DNA of 64,000 nucleotides from Candidatus Omnitrophota bacterium (GTDB lineage: Bacteria > Omnitrophota > Gorgyraeia > Gygaellales > Profunditerraquicolaceae): positions 50,512 through 114,511 of the forward strand of contig JBHPGR010000001.1 of the NCBI GenBank assembly GCA_042570405.1, in the 5' to 3' direction. Position numbers: made by a program. Each line of letters opens with the position of its first letter. The first letter of the stretch is position 1. Below, one piece after another: positions 1 through 6,000 of this stretch.

Positions 1-3000
1 AGAGCGATGTGCCATTGGGTGTCTTCTTAAGCGGCGGGCTGGATTCCAGTATGATCGTGGCGATAATGGCGCGCCTGGGAGCTAAGATCAAGACATTCTC
101 TATCGGGTTCAGGGAGAAGGCATACAACGAGTTAAAATACGCTTCGATGGTCGCTAAGCGTTATAGCACTGATCACCGGGAGTTCATGGTCACCCCCAAG
201 GCAAGGGAGGTAGTGCCTCTTTTAGTCGAGCGCTACGGAGAACCCTACGCTGATTCCTCGGCGATCCCGAGTTATTATGTCGCTAGAGAGACGAGAAGAT
301 TCGTTACCGTAGCCTTAAACGGAGACGGAGGGGATGAGGCCTTTGCGGGTTACGAAAGATATCAGGCGATGTACCTGGCTGAGGCCTATTTCCGTCTGCC
401 GGGATTTTTGAGGGATAAGATACTGCCGACTTTTACGCGGATGATCCCGGATTCCATACATTTTCATAATCCTTTAAGAAGGGCGAGGCGTTTTTTAAAA
501 GGCGCACAACTTCCCAGGCTGGATAGGTACACAGGCTGGATGAGTTTCACGCCTAAGCAGATACTCAGCCGGATCTACACAAAGAGTTTCAAGAAGAGGT
601 TCTCCTCCGGGGCTGGTTCAGGCTATCTTAGTCCTTTCCTTGATAATTTTGGCAGGTTGGAGCTTTTAGATACTTTATTACTTACAGATATCTCGACAAA
701 CCTGCCTAATGACCTGACGGTGAAGATGGATATCGCCACTATGGCTAATTCTTTGGAGGCCCGCTCGCCATTTCTTGATCAGGAGGTAATGGGATTTATG
801 GCTTCTATACCGGCAAGACTAAAATTTAAAGGTTTAAATAAGAAATATTTGATCAAACAGCTAGCTAAAGAATACCTGCCGAAGGAGATCATACAGCGCA
901 AGAAAAGGGGTTTCGGCGTTCCGGTGGGGGATTGGTTCAGGGGAGAACTCAAGGGCTTTCTATTTGAGAATCTTTTGTCCAGAAAGTCTATGAACAGAGG
1001 ATATTTTATGCCTGAAGTCATAAAGATGATGATAAAGGAGCACGCAGAGGCGAGGGAGGATTATGCTAATCCGCTCTGGACGCTCTTGATGCTTGAGCTG
1101 TGGCACCAGAGATTTATCGATTAGAATGAAAAAGACCTATTTTCTTATTAAGATCGCCTTATTAGTCGTAGTGATCTTGGTTTTGAATGTAGATGTTACT
1201 ACCAGGAAGGGGATTAATTTCGAAGTGCGCACAGTAAAGATTCCCCTATACTTAAAAGCATTGAATTTTTTTGATCGGCACTATAATTACAAGCACCTAG
1301 TTAGACAGATTCTCGATAAGAATGATCCCGCAGAGGAGCGGGTAATGAAGATATTTAACTGGACGCTGGAAAATATTAGAGAGGTTCCGCCAGGATTTCC
1401 AATTGTTGATAATCATGTATGGACTATCATCGTCAGGGGTTGCGGCGCCTGCGACCAGTCGCATGACGTATTCACAACGCTCTGCAATTATGCCGGTATA
1501 AGGTCGTATTATGCCTGGGTCGATTCAGCGGATGGCAAGAAAAGGTATCCTTTTTCCTTCGTTAAATTGCAGAAAAGATGGTGTATCCTTGACCCCTGCG
1601 GGGGCGTTTATTTCAAAAATAACAGAGAAGGGCTTGCTGATCTAAACGAGATGCAATGCGGGAATTTTTCCGTCGTAAAGCTAAAAGAAGATCAGGAATT
1701 AAGCTATACCGCGTACTTGGGAAATTTAAAATCAACACAATATCCAGGTATGAACAGGGCAAACGTTCAATCGCCCTTGAACAGATTATTCTATTGGCTA
1801 GGGGCGATGGGGAAGAAGTTAAAATGAGAACGCTCTGCATATTATTGACCGATCCTATGAAGGTGCTTTACGAGAAAGGAGAGATTAAGGCGAGGTACTA
1901 TAATCCGGGGAATTACTTCACCCGCGTAGCGATGATCTCATTTTGTGAACAGGATATTGACGAGGAAAAGATCAAGGTGGTTACAGGCTCGGCTGAGTTA
2001 AAGATACACAGTCTGGGCAGGTTATCTCTTTTTTCATTGCCGTCAGCAGTTATCCGCCTGATGAACTTAATGAGAAAGATCAGGCCAGATATGATCAGGA
2101 GCTATGATCCATCTCTTAGGGGGGCACTGGCTGTATTTCTGGGCAAGGTTTATAATATCCCTTCAGTGATCTCAGTGCATAATGATCTGGACGCAGAGAG
2201 GGTTTTTGATAAACGGCCAATATTGCGCTTAAGGAAGGTATTGGAGTATTATTCCTTAAGAGGAGCGGATAGGGTTATCTGTGTGACTGACTACGTAAAA
2301 AGCTACGTCAGTAAATACAGGCAAAATAGCGCAGAGACGATTTATAACCGTATCGATCTTAGCCAGTTTTCTAAAACGAGGGTTACCCGTAATGAGGGAA
2401 GAAAACGGGTAATCAGCGTGGGGAGGCTGGTCAGTCAAAAGTATCAGGAGTGCCTTATCAGGGCGGTCAAAGACCTGGATGTCGATTTAGTCTTGATTGG
2501 AAACGGTAACCTGCGCGGCCACCTAGAGAGACTTTGTCGGGATCTGAATATCGCTGACAAAGTAAAATTTATAAGTTCTGTCCCTAATTCCCAAATCCAA
2601 GACTACTATTTAGAGAGCGATATCTTTGCCATCGCTACCAATTATGAAGGCTTTTGCATTCCGGTAGCAGAAGCCATGGCCAGCGGTTTGCCAGTTATTG
2701 CCTCACGCATTCCCGCACTTGTAGAGTTAGTCCAAGATGCTGGTTTTCTTTGCGAAAACACACCGGATTCTTTTAAGGAAAACATAAGTATTCTTTTAAA
2801 TGATGAGGAACTCAGACTAAGGATGGGAAAGAAGGCCAGAGAGCGCGCTAAAAGATTTGATGCGTATATATGGGAAGAAAAGGAAAAGGAATTATATGCT
2901 GCATTATTGAAAAATGGGTAAGGAAACAAAGAATATATTATTAATAAACCCGGTACCTAGCTTGTGGTGGAAATACCACAAAGATGATCCTAACGTAGGT

Positions 3001-6000
3001 CCGCCTTTAGGCGTTCTTTCTGTAGGAAGCATGTTAAGGCAAGAGGGGTTTTCGGTAAAAATCATTGATGCGGCGGTCGAAAAGAAATATTCCCAAAGTA
3101 TTAAGAATGAATTAAAGAAAGAACTCCTTTTTGTCGGGATTTCGACAATGACACCGCAGGTACCCTCCGCGCTTTATATCAGCAGATTGATTAAAGAATA
3201 CAATTCAGCTTTACCTATAGTCTGGGGCGGTGTTCATCCGACCCTGTTTCCAGAACAGACACTTAAAGACGCTACGGTGGATATAGTAATTCGTGGGCTG
3301 GGAGAGTATGCAGTCTTGGAAATAGCCGATGCTTTAAACAACGGCAGACCTTTTTCTTCTATCAGGGGTATCGGGTATAAAAGTGGCGGAAGCCATTTCT
3401 TTACAGAAGAAAGAGGATTTATTAAAGATATGAATACTTTACCCTCCTTGGATTACGAACTTATCGATGTGGAAAATTATATCAATAGAAATTATGTTGA
3501 ATTCGGAGGCAAGAGGGTAAGGACGCTGATGATTTATGGCGGCATCGGCTGTCCCTATAAATGCAGATTTTGTATAAGTTCGATCGTGCATCATTCTCGT
3601 TATGCCTTTAAATCGGCACAGAAATTAATCCGAGAAATCGAGATAGTAATAAACAGATATAATGTTAATCATATAAATTTCAGGGATGAGAACTTTTTTG
3701 CCAGCAGATCGAGAATCGAAGAGTTACTTAAGGAGAAAGAGGAGAGAAACCTTAAGTTTTCCTGGGAAGCAAATGTGCGCGCCAGCTATTTTAATGAATC
3801 CTACATATCGGAGGATTTCCTCAAAAGATTGGAAGCTTCAGGATGTGTTTTATTTGGTATCGGTGCTGAAAGCGGTGATGATAGGGTTCTTAAGAGGATA
3901 AAGAAGGATATAACTACAGATGATGTTCTTCATTCGTGTAAGCTAAGCAAAAAATACAAGATAACATTTGGCTATTCCTTTATGATGGCTATACCCGGTG
4001 AAACAAAAACAGAAATGCTGGCCACAGCAAAATTTATCCTTAGGCTAATTGATGAAAACAAGAATAACTATATTATCGGTCCACAGATCTTCAGGCCTTA
4101 TCCTGGTTCTGAACTGTATAAAGAGTGCCTAGGTAAGGGTTTATATCAACCTGATGATCTTAGCGGCTGGCAAGATATATATTTTGACCGTGACATTATA
4201 GTCGATAAAAAGGATGCTAGAGAGAGGTTGCCTTGGATAGATGACCTTGCCTTTGTAGGCAAAATCCATTTTTATACAAAATGTGCTGCTTTATCCTGTA
4301 AGAAAGGGAATTTCATTGAACGCTTGATTAGGGTAATGATTTCCCGTTTGAGCAGATTAAGGATAAGACATGATTTTTTTAATTTGCCTTTAGAATATAT
4401 GGCTTATAGTGTTTTTGCGAAATTACTCTTACGCCTTAGGTCGAATATTCTACATCCATCCAACGACTCGGAAGAGAGGAGGCATAAATGGACTAATAGG
4501 AGGCATATCGATTCTCTTGAGAAGGGGTTTGTCCGGCATTTGCATGCTGTCCGCACAAGATATATATTAGAGAAAATTAGCCAGATTAAAAAAGACAGAA
4601 AAATGCCCTTACGGATTCTGGATTTAGGCTGCGGAGACGGTGTAATTACGCATAGAATAGAGCAGGTACTTCAGGGGGAGGATGAGCTTTTCGGTTGCGA
4701 CGATGATCCGGTAAGGTTAGATAGGACAAGGCAGTTATGTTCTAAAGCCAATTTTAAATATACAAAGGCTGAGCGGCTTGATTTTCCAGATATTTGTTTT
4801 GATTTAGTTTTATTGCACCATGTTATTGAACATATTGAAGATGACCGAGCTGTATTAAGAGAGTGTTTCAGGGTTTTAAAGCCGGAGGGTTTTTTAATAT
4901 TAGGCATACCTCAGGAAGATAGCGTATTCGGACGGATTTTGCGCCGGTTACATAGAGGGATTTATAAAAGAGGTGAACATATACATTTTTATTCTGTTGA
5001 TTCCATGAAAAGATTAATAGAAGAAAGTGGCTTCAGCTGTAAGGAGTATAAGAAATTCGGTTCTATATTTCCATTTTATTATATCCATATTTTGCTGATT
5101 GCTAATAAATTGACTTTTTCGCTCGGGAATATATTGGCGCAAGAATTCGATTTTTTGGCGGATTCATTGATTTTCTCAGCAAAAAAAACTGCGAAAAAAT
5201 ACTAAATAGCGATGACTGCGAGCCCGTACAAGAAATTTATAAAAGATGTGATTTTGGTGGGTATTGTAGATTCATTTAAAAGCTTAAGGGCCCTGATTAT
5301 AATCCCCATATTAACGAAGACTCTGGGCGCAGGCGGCTACGGGATGTGGATACAAATAAGAGTCGCTATAATGTTTTTCGTACCCATTGTTGTTTTAGGA
5401 CTTGATCGTGCGATTGTCTGTTTTTTAGCCGGAAAGCATAAAACGGAAGAAATAAGCGATGCCTTCTTCTCAAGTCTTGCCGTAACATTGTCCCTGGGTT
5501 TAGTCTGTGCAGGAATAATTTATGCTTTTTCTGACTATCTATCAGTATTTATACTCGGAACAGGTGATTTTTCTTATTTTGTTAAACTCGCGGCTTTATT
5601 ACTCCTGCTTATTTGCCTTGACCATATGACACTAATTTATTTTCAGACATTCAGACAGATGAAGAATCATTTTATTTTTCTCAGCCTGGAGTCACTTGGG
5701 GAGGTTTTGTTGGTAGCATTCATGGTATTTAATGGGTTTGGAATATTGGGCGTACTCTTTTCATTAATAGTGATAAAAATGGCATTTTTCATTTTTAAGT
5801 TCTTAGAGATAATATCGCAGATAGGGTTGAAAATGCCTACTTTTCTTGAGATAAAGAAATATATAAGATATGGATACCCTTTGGCAATCGCATACTTATT
5901 TTATTTTTTAATTAACTACAGTGACAGATATATTATAAATTATTTCTCGGGTGTAGAGAAAGTTGGAATTTATTCTGTAGCTTATGCCGTTGGATCGATT

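Follow-up and report, generated by a model that had tools for sequence, protein, structure and literature searches.

A probably one-off fusion of a cobalamin-type radical SAM module to a class I methyltransferase in an Omnitrophota surface-glycan locus, one nucleotide away from two separate genes

Results and Discussion

A single reading frame joins a radical SAM module to a methyltransferase

We analyzed a stretch of 64,000 nucleotides from a metagenome-assembled genome (MAG) of Candidatus Omnitrophota (GenBank assembly GCA_042570405.1, contig JBHPGR010000001.1, positions 50,512 to 114,511), referred to below as the window. Its plus strand carries, from 1 to 50706, an operon of about 50 kb which forms a surface-glycan locus resembling those for lipopolysaccharide and O-antigen. 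Near the beginning of this operon lies an open reading frame (ORF) in which a cobalamin (B12)-binding domain, a radical S-adenosylmethionine (SAM) core and a class I methyltransferase follow one another on one polypeptide. The frame 2914..5205 is unbroken over 763 codons, starts with ATG, and its product is identical to the NCBI entry MFC1674314.1 ("radical SAM protein", Candidatus Omnitrophota bacterium, on a contig of 125,408 bp). The initial annotation of the window, made from the sequence alone, had described just such a 763-residue fusion; the continuity of the frame was borne out, and all three domains gave Pfam matches above their cut-offs. The parts of the ORF are as follows.

2914..5205, plus strand: fused ORF, 763 amino acids (aa), with B12-binding, radical SAM and class I methyltransferase domains (ORF call and Pfam)
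2992..3324, plus strand: cobalamin-binding Rossmann domain, residues 27-137 (PF02310, 75.9 bits against a cut-off of 32.1)
3544..4038, plus strand: radical SAM core, residues 211-375 (PF04055, 79.2 bits against a cut-off of 29.5)
4039..4446, plus strand: C-terminal helical part of the radical SAM module, up to about residue 511 (profile match, structure model, and C-termini of orthologues, which align here)
4447..4482, plus strand: linker NILHPSNDSEERR, the former C-terminal tail of the radical SAM protein, between the two profile matches
4483..4500, plus strand: junction CATAAATGGACTAATAG, where H524-K525-W526-T527 takes the place of the M-K-W-T start of the orthologues (N-terminal alignment of 20 orthologues)
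4477..5199, plus strand: class I SAM methyltransferase module, residues 522-762 (profile match)

The cluster motif CPYKCRFC is found at residues 213-220 (nucleotides 3550-3573), inside the radical SAM core, and the three cysteines of its [4Fe-4S]-binding CxxxCxxC pattern (C213-x3-C217-x2-C220) are invariant across 70 homologues. In the methyltransferase half, Methyltransf_11 (PF08241) matches residues 569-663 with 69.8 bits against a cut-off of 21.2, and motif I, ILDLGCGDGV, occupies residues 568-577 (nucleotides 4615-4644). Hidden Markov models (HMMs) built from homologues of each half matched residues 2-511 and 522-762, leaving a linker of about 10 residues. Membership of the N-terminal module in the cobalamin-type (B12-binding domain) radical SAM superfamily is thus established, and the C-terminal module belongs to the ordinary class I methyltransferases. 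Enzymes of the former type are called B12-rSAM hereafter.

The fused form is a singleton

The architecture had been proposed to be one without functional characterization, and indeed no characterized fusion of a radical SAM enzyme to a methyltransferase turned up in the literature searched. Whether it is also a meaningful new architecture is a different matter. Two kinds of search were made: a word-indexed search covering 5.8 billion protein clusters, and a HMMER search covering 1.84 billion cluster representatives, from which the 150 best matches were taken. When the whole protein was used in the former, only the protein itself covered both halves of the query; its cluster consists of one sequence on one contig, and among about 15 billion proteins there is no second instance of the fused product. 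The other best matches, 119 in number, were all stand-alone B12-rSAMs of about 440-555 aa (0/119 fused); the nearest of them, 482-513 aa long and partly annotated as Omnitrophota, share 54-58% identity with the window protein. With the C-terminal 252 residues as the query we obtained 18 orthologues (P0247-P0264; 41-54% identity, 92-95% query coverage), every one of them a stand-alone methyltransferase of 234-283 aa (16 of the 18 fall within 234-256 aa). Close relatives of either half therefore proved to be stand-alone without exception, and none above 58% identity was found for either half in the collections searched.

Other sources gave the same picture. No fused form occurred among 80 metagenome loci retrieved by similarity to the radical SAM module alone (0/80), there was no record of the exact 763-aa product in the contig index, and a scan of species-representative genomes with the whole protein, in a set that does not include the source genome, returned two distant loci at 30-32% identity. 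Fusions of a B12-rSAM to a methyltransferase domain do occur elsewhere, in 3 of the 150 best cluster representatives from the HMMER search. P0147 (769 aa, locus L015) has the radical SAM part first, as in the window, P0156 (858 aa, locus L014) has the methyltransferase first, and P0204 (772 aa) combines a methyltransferase fragment, a GT1 glycosyltransferase and a radical SAM part. Each of them is one sequence on one contig, the nearest relatives of P0147 are all unfused, and cluster look-ups found no fused form shared by more than one sequence. Because each is a singleton with unfused nearest relatives, the three are independent fusion events.

The idea of a meaningful new architecture thus found no support, as the fused protein is a singleton, its relatives stand alone, a related locus (L004, described below) carries the two halves as a split pair, and a single G separates the present sequence from two genes. 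The fused protein is probably a one-off accident (or an assembly error) and not a new kind of enzyme.

One inserted G restores two ordinary genes

The stand-alone radical SAM orthologues end opposite the window residues ...LRLRSN, and the methyltransferase orthologues begin with the pattern M-K/R-W-T-x-K-x-H/Q-x-D-x-L-E-x-G. At the matching place the window has H524-K525-W526-T527-N-R-R-H-I-D-S-L-E-K-G, encoded from CAT AAA TGG ACT at 4483-4494, so that K525-W526-T527 aligns with residues 2-4 of the orthologues; M-K/R-W-T, or at least the W in the same column, is present in 15 of 20 orthologue N-termini. The window methyltransferase therefore shows full-length similarity to the MKWT orthogroup, but it has no start codon of its own (CAT, His524, stands in place of ATG).

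Insertion of a single G after 4485 (CAT-G-AAA) turns this site into ATG AAA TGG ACT and yields a methyltransferase of 240 aa starting with MKWTNRRH; the closest orthologue, P0247, likewise has 240 aa. The same insertion closes the upstream frame as a radical SAM protein of 527 aa, which ends with ...RRHEMD at the double stop TAA TAG (4495-4500, frame +2). The suspect position thus lies between 4485 and 4486, where the present consensus reads CATAAATGG, and the two-gene version of 4483-4491 would read CATGAAATGG. The reconstructed genes overlap by 14 nt, which is within the range of 12 natural pairs in which a radical SAM gene is followed by a methyltransferase gene (overlaps of 62, 25, 20 and 20 nt, or gaps of 2-47 nt). 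Pairs packed as tightly as these are always one indel from fusion.

As the sequence stands, M496 is followed by no further in-frame ATG, GTG or TTG until a TTG at 4540, itself located inside the conserved HLH motif. Judged from these codons, a methyltransferase with the conserved N-terminus can only be made as part of the fusion. The fusion is explained most simply by loss of the G of the methyltransferase ATG, a single event which would both remove the start codon and join the two frames.

Two other treatments of the junction were set aside. Deletion of one G of the GG at 4490-4491 would make stop and start codons overlap as ATGA, with a GGAGG 5 nt ahead of the ATG, but this model was rejected as the methyltransferase would then start with MTNRRH and lose the K-W conserved among orthologues. 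The ribosome-binding-site look-alike is not significant either: GGAGG followed by ATG at a distance of 4-9 nt occurs 10 times on the plus strand of 1..50706, and only one of these is at a real start. Enumeration of all single-base indels in 4400-4560 was uninformative, since a longest-ORF rule chose GTG 4411 for nearly all insertions.

A natural deletion or an assembly error

The same observations may be read in two ways. It seems fairly probable to us that two adjacent glycan-tailoring genes were joined end to start in this lineage to give the 763-aa ORF, through loss of one nucleotide, and that the two modules of the product work independently of each other. A less probable account, which nevertheless has to be taken seriously, is that the cell contains two genes, encoding a 527-aa radical SAM protein and a 240-aa methyltransferase with the 14-nt overlap, and that the G at 4485/4486 was dropped during assembly or consensus calling. 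One inserted base places the start exactly at Met1 of the orthologues and gives the radical SAM gene a prompt double stop, as such an error would predict; the uniqueness of the fused product fits it as well, and the other fusions are likewise singletons on single contigs, as sporadic errors would be.

On the other hand, the rest of the operon does not look like error-prone sequence. Its 46 plus-strand ORFs tile 50.7 kb and none of them is broken, despite 129 homopolymer runs of at least 6 nt. The missing base lies outside any homopolymer; a single G flanked by T and A is not where consensus indels usually fall. One-base deletions are, moreover, a common natural route to gene fusion. By our estimate a real deletion is roughly twice as likely as an error. 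A second frameshift was at one time suspected in the methyltransferase gene 28140..28832, in which motif I seemed to be absent, but VNVGCG is present at residues 9-14 and the gene is intact.

Chemistry of the radical SAM module

The radical SAM module alone (residues 1-515) was modelled with a mean predicted local distance difference test score (pLDDT) of 94.3 and a predicted template modelling score (pTM) of 0.93; 10-residue block means in the B12 domain were about 90-98, and the predicted helices extend to residues 493-510. The top 17 PDB fold matches (Foldseek) were TsrM, QCMT/MgmA, AprD4, OxsB, CysS and TokK, with E-values of 1e-22 to 1e-15, query-normalized TM-scores of 0.59-0.69 and 14-20% identity. 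CysS and OxsB, at 14-19% identity, are no closer than TsrM, QCMT or AprD4. AprD4 shares this arrangement of domains and yet does not use cobalamin, so that the fold alone is no proof of cobalamin use. The initial annotation named relatives of GenK, Fom3 and TsrM as B12-rSAM enzymes of sugar contexts; Fom3 and TsrM, however, are not sugar enzymes. By sequence, the best PDB matches were AprD4, limited to the core (E = 2.4e-13), and QCMT, over residues 66-410 (E = 5.3e-11; PDB 9CCB is QCMT/MgmA, PMC12931638). None of the curated NCBIfam subfamily models (HpnJ, BchE, PhpK, QCMT, HpnR, TsrM, KedN5, AprD4 and others) was passed by the module: the best scores were 156.1 bits for HpnJ against a cut-off of 577.6 and 148 for BchE against 481.35, others being lower.

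Methylation is the most common activity among characterized cobalamin-dependent radical SAM enzymes (PMC11659888), and we take it as a working assumption. C-methylation is plausible, but the reaction type is not fixed by membership in the superfamily. We consider it rather doubtful, without dismissing it, that the N-terminal module is not a methylase and instead carries out a deoxygenation or dehydration as AprD4 does, a ring contraction of the HpnJ or OxsB kind, an epimerization or an oxidation, in which case the fused methyltransferase would be the sole methyl-transferring part. This would agree with the two top NCBIfam scores belonging to HpnJ and BchE, neither of which is a methylase, with a sugar diol-dehydratase, AprD4, as the best PDB sequence match, and with AprD4 and OxsB scoring as well as methylases in the fold search. 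Yet the non-methylase scores are far below the family cut-offs, and 14-20% identity to every solved structure indicates superfamily membership only. The match to a methylase, QCMT, spans both the B12 and the radical SAM domains, whereas the AprD4 sequence match is confined to the core; the prevalence of methylases in the class also speaks against it.

The surrounding operon

The plus-strand operon contains GT4, GT2 and GT9 glycosyltransferases, a Wzx flippase, two proteins resembling O-antigen ligase or Wzy, enzymes for dTDP- and GDP-sugars and an aminotransferase. From 50712 on, genes for RNase G and type IV pili follow on the minus strand. The genes most relevant to the fusion are listed below.

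9..1827, plus strand: AsnB-like amidotransferase (truncated by the window start) and a transglutaminase-core protein, the upstream part of a conserved cassette
1656..2921, plus strand: GT4 glycosyltransferase directly upstream of the fusion, with an 8-nt overlap
5212..6684, plus strand: Wzx-type flippase (Polysacc_synt/MatE), downstream of the fusion
6730..7578, plus strand: stand-alone class I methyltransferase, in an unfused pair with the second B12-rSAM
7607..9055, plus strand: second B12-rSAM (B12-binding and Radical_SAM), 28 nt after the methyltransferase 6730..7578
9024..9848, plus strand: polysaccharide deacetylase
9766..10677, plus strand: stand-alone class I methyltransferase
25489..26937, with an ATG at 25564, plus strand: third B12-rSAM (B12-binding and Radical_SAM), between GT4 24235..25398 and GT2 26931..27887
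28140..28832, plus strand: stand-alone class I methyltransferase
32718..34535, plus strand: carbamoyltransferase, 605 aa

The two further B12-rSAM genes that had been noted in this locus were confirmed by B12-binding and Radical_SAM matches; they share 25% (second) and 22% (third) identity with the radical SAM module of the fusion. Glycosyltransferases, the deacetylase and the carbamoyltransferase were likewise found in the same operon, all on the plus strand. As to the four separate methyltransferases counted previously, we found three stand-alone class I proteins, the fourth methyltransferase domain being that of the fusion. A methylated and carbamoylated glycan, which had been predicted from this gene content, is a reasonable but generic expectation.

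Several other features of the operon deserve a mention. The order of methyltransferase 6730..7578 and B12-rSAM 7607..9055 is the reverse of the order in the fusion. The polysaccharide deacetylase is followed by a GT1 glycosyltransferase fused to a DUF218 domain (10667..12541, 624 aa), and the same pair is present in L006 (9524-10723), a locus without a B12-rSAM. The initiating transferase (15957..17765, 602 aa) is itself a fusion, of Glycos_transf_4 (WecA/MraY-like) and CoA_binding_3/PglD_N-like domains. A small SxtJ-like protein (PF19588, a saxitoxin-operon family) comes after the carbamoyltransferase, within 32718..34954. Two low-GC islands lie inside the operon at 28001-30000 and 36001-38000 (GC 0.32, against 0.41-0.49 in the flanks); a 615-aa ORF (29155..31002) falls within them and a 686-aa ORF (38350..40410) next to them, neither with a Pfam match. 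The islands may reflect mosaic acquisition, a common trait of O-antigen loci.

Both genes share a GT4 glycosyltransferase as constant partner

The cassette AsnB - Transglut_core - GT4 - B12-rSAM (window 9..5205) recurs in L001, L002 and L004, all on Omnitrophota-type contigs; in L005 only its Transglut_core - GT4 - B12-rSAM part is found, and the AsnB-like gene is elsewhere in that locus. L004 (contig JBGGHJ010000789.1, GCA_041643015.1) has the order GT4 - radical SAM (513 aa) - methyltransferase (236 aa) - AsnB, and L005 also has the order radical SAM - methyltransferase - flippase. In L008/L009 the order is GT4 - methyltransferase - radical SAM, while L006/L007 and L010/L011 have GT4 - methyltransferase without a B12-rSAM, and the radical SAM genes of L001 and L002 and the first one of L005 have no methyltransferase neighbor. 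A GT4 partners the radical SAM or methyltransferase orthologues in L001, L002, L004, L005, L006, L008 and L010, and in the loci examined the methyltransferase orthologues always lie downstream of a GT4. As loci exist with either gene but not the other, it is GT4 that is the constant partner of both, and the association of radical SAM and methyltransferase genes is loose.

This association was quantified in 74 dereplicated metagenome loci, chosen by radical SAM similarity alone. A same-strand methyltransferase domain occupied the next-gene slot on 15 of 121 available sides, as compared to 11 of 257 farther positions (odds ratio 3.2, Fisher p = 0.0075). An approximately 3-fold enrichment is real but modest, and suggests a loose pathway link.

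One might assume that such a link is more than loose, and that the fusion works as a Rosetta stone: a B12-rSAM and a methyltransferase that are chemically coupled would have been fused under selection for channeling, either with O-methylation followed by radical SAM extension of the methoxy group, as in CysS, or with the methyltransferase acting on a group created by the radical SAM enzyme. We find this rather unlikely, although several observations are in its favor. Fusions have arisen independently in both orders (P0147 with the radical SAM part first, P0156 with the methyltransferase first), the next-gene slot is enriched in methyltransferases, the window contains a second, unfused methyltransferase-then-radical-SAM pair at 6730..9055, and the fold neighbors include CysS solved with 3-methoxy and 3-ethoxy substrates. 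Nevertheless, each partner occurs without the other in the loci named above, the neighbor that both share is GT4, the adjacent methyltransferases come from varied subfamilies (HMM scores of 33-267 bits), and every fused form is confined to a single sequence.

A more specific version would be that the pairs are sequential partners, that the window fusion is real, functional and channeled, and that an O- or N-methyl group, placed on a lipid-linked sugar by the methyltransferase, is extended or branched by the cobalamin-dependent radical SAM module (methoxy to ethoxy or isopropoxy, in the manner of CysS), or a neighboring carbon C-methylated by it. This idea is kept alive by the adjacency enrichment and by independent fusions with either order of the domains, but it is weakened by loci holding one partner without the other, and we regard it as a long shot. 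If it were true, it would imply alkylated sugars not yet described in bacterial surface polysaccharides, and such chemistry would be spread through a very large radical SAM clade in Omnitrophota, Patescibacteria, DPANN archaea and other uncultured lineages.

Some of the related loci carry further combinations. B12-binding and Radical_SAM domains are fused to GT4/GT1 domains in L005 (347-3049, 900 aa) and L002 (1-195, the end of an 890-aa product), and possibly in L067 (1324-4173); since two independent contigs have it at an equivalent position of the locus, the radical SAM-glycosyltransferase fusion looks conserved, unlike the methyltransferase fusion. HepT/MNT-type toxin-antitoxin pairs lie between glycan genes and adjoin the methyltransferase - radical SAM pair in L008 (1-2600) and L009 (3-2457). 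Radical SAM/SPASM proteins of 351-357 aa stand beside methyltransferases in the glycan loci L015 (2561-4265) and L006 (7641-8696), and represent a second, B12-independent radical SAM type in the same glycan context.

Proposed origin and function of the fused protein

Our preferred explanation, fusion by loss of one nucleotide in this lineage, may be summarized as follows. The parent genes would have encoded a cobalamin-type radical SAM enzyme and, after it, a class I methyltransferase, normally separate and overlapping. Loss of the G of the methyltransferase ATG would have shifted the radical SAM frame into the methyltransferase frame before the radical SAM TAA TAG was reached. The fusion may have been tolerated because the two genes were already co-translated neighbors. 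Should the deletion be real, the product would be a bifunctional tailoring enzyme with both modules intact and with the old radical SAM tail as a joint of about 10 residues.

As for its function, the upstream GT4 would add a sugar to a lipid-linked repeat unit at the cytoplasmic face. The N-terminal module, using its [4Fe-4S] cluster and SAM to form a 5'-deoxyadenosyl radical, would then modify an unactivated carbon of that sugar, most likely by C-methylation through methylcobalamin. The C-terminal module would transfer a methyl group, by ordinary SN2 chemistry, to an O or N nucleophile on the same sugar, after which the Wzx flippase would export the unit. The two modules would thus be independent enzymes of one pathway and not an obligate pair. 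The unbroken frame, its domains and fold, the split orthologues, the reconstruction by one base and the singleton status are results of the analysis; what we infer concerns the substrate, the reaction type and a biological, rather than assembly-related, origin of the deletion.

Several points weigh against this explanation. An assembly or consensus deletion may lie behind the junction, with the source population represented by one assembly in the collections searched and relatives at no more than 58% identity. The singleton status of the fused protein is no proof of a recent fusion, because no close relative has been sampled (the nearest has 58% identity). The one-base reconstruction is suggestive, not statistically compelling: by our estimate about 3/16 of dinucleotides before AAA (roughly 1 in 5) can yield an ATG when one base is inserted, and stops outside the reading frame are frequent where sequence is AT-rich. 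Finally, C-methylation is not established, as no family model was passed and the fold neighbors include a sugar diol-dehydratase and a ring-contraction enzyme.

The finding calls for caution, since only one base may separate a striking multidomain protein in a MAG from a pair of ordinary genes; unless reads support it, the fusion should not enter catalogues of new enzyme architectures. The main value of the finding lies in its context. The sequence adds new members to known families, within an uncharacterized clade of glycan-locus B12-rSAMs. This is a large clade of cobalamin-type radical SAM proteins of about 500 aa, none of which matches a characterized subfamily; in uncultured bacteria and archaea their genes lie beside GT4 genes in surface-glycan loci, and some of the proteins form stable fusions with glycosyltransferases. 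We found nothing specific on B12-rSAMs in O-antigen or polysaccharide loci in the literature searched, nor any mention of B12-rSAM chemistry on surface polysaccharides in the reviews searched. If the clade C-methylates or otherwise radically modifies lipid-linked sugars, it would constitute an unexplored class of glycan tailoring, and the pairs described here, fused or split, would offer a convenient start for constructs.

Comparison with known systems

HpnJ (TIGR03471) and BchE (TIGR02026) have the same B12-binding and radical SAM architecture as the N-terminal module and align with it over residues 29-416. They belong to hopanoid and bacteriochlorophyll pathways, however, and with scores so far below their cut-offs the window protein is no member of either family. 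The solved enzymes TsrM (6WTE), QCMT/MgmA (9CCB), CysS (9N1B), TokK (7KDX), OxsB (5UL3) and AprD4 (6FD2) share with it the layout of an N-terminal Rossmann B12 domain, a partial TIM-barrel radical SAM core with CxxxCxxC and a C-terminal helical domain. They differ in that their substrates are tryptophan, protein glutamine, an aryl methoxy group, a carbapenem, a nucleotide and paromamine, not a lipid-linked glycan, and in that none of them has a class I methyltransferase domain.

With respect to chemistry, the aminoglycoside sugar C-methylases GenK/GenD1 are, to our knowledge, the only characterized precedent for C-methylation of a sugar by a B12-rSAM. They methylate unactivated sugar carbons but are stand-alone proteins of actinomycete secondary-metabolite pathways.

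With respect to architecture, P0147, P0156 and P0204 resemble the window protein in having B12-binding, Radical_SAM and Methyltransf_11 domains on one polypeptide in glycan-type loci. They differ from it in their 29-31% identity and another methyltransferase subfamily, and in P0156 and P0204 the order is reversed.

Among these systems, L004 combines likeness of synteny (AsnB, Transglut_core, GT4, radical SAM and methyltransferase) with tight coupling of the genes. Its radical SAM protein has 56-57% identity to that of the window and its methyltransferase 43% to the C-terminal part, but in L004 the two are encoded by two genes in separate frames with a 62-nt overlap, whereas in the window they are encoded by one frame.

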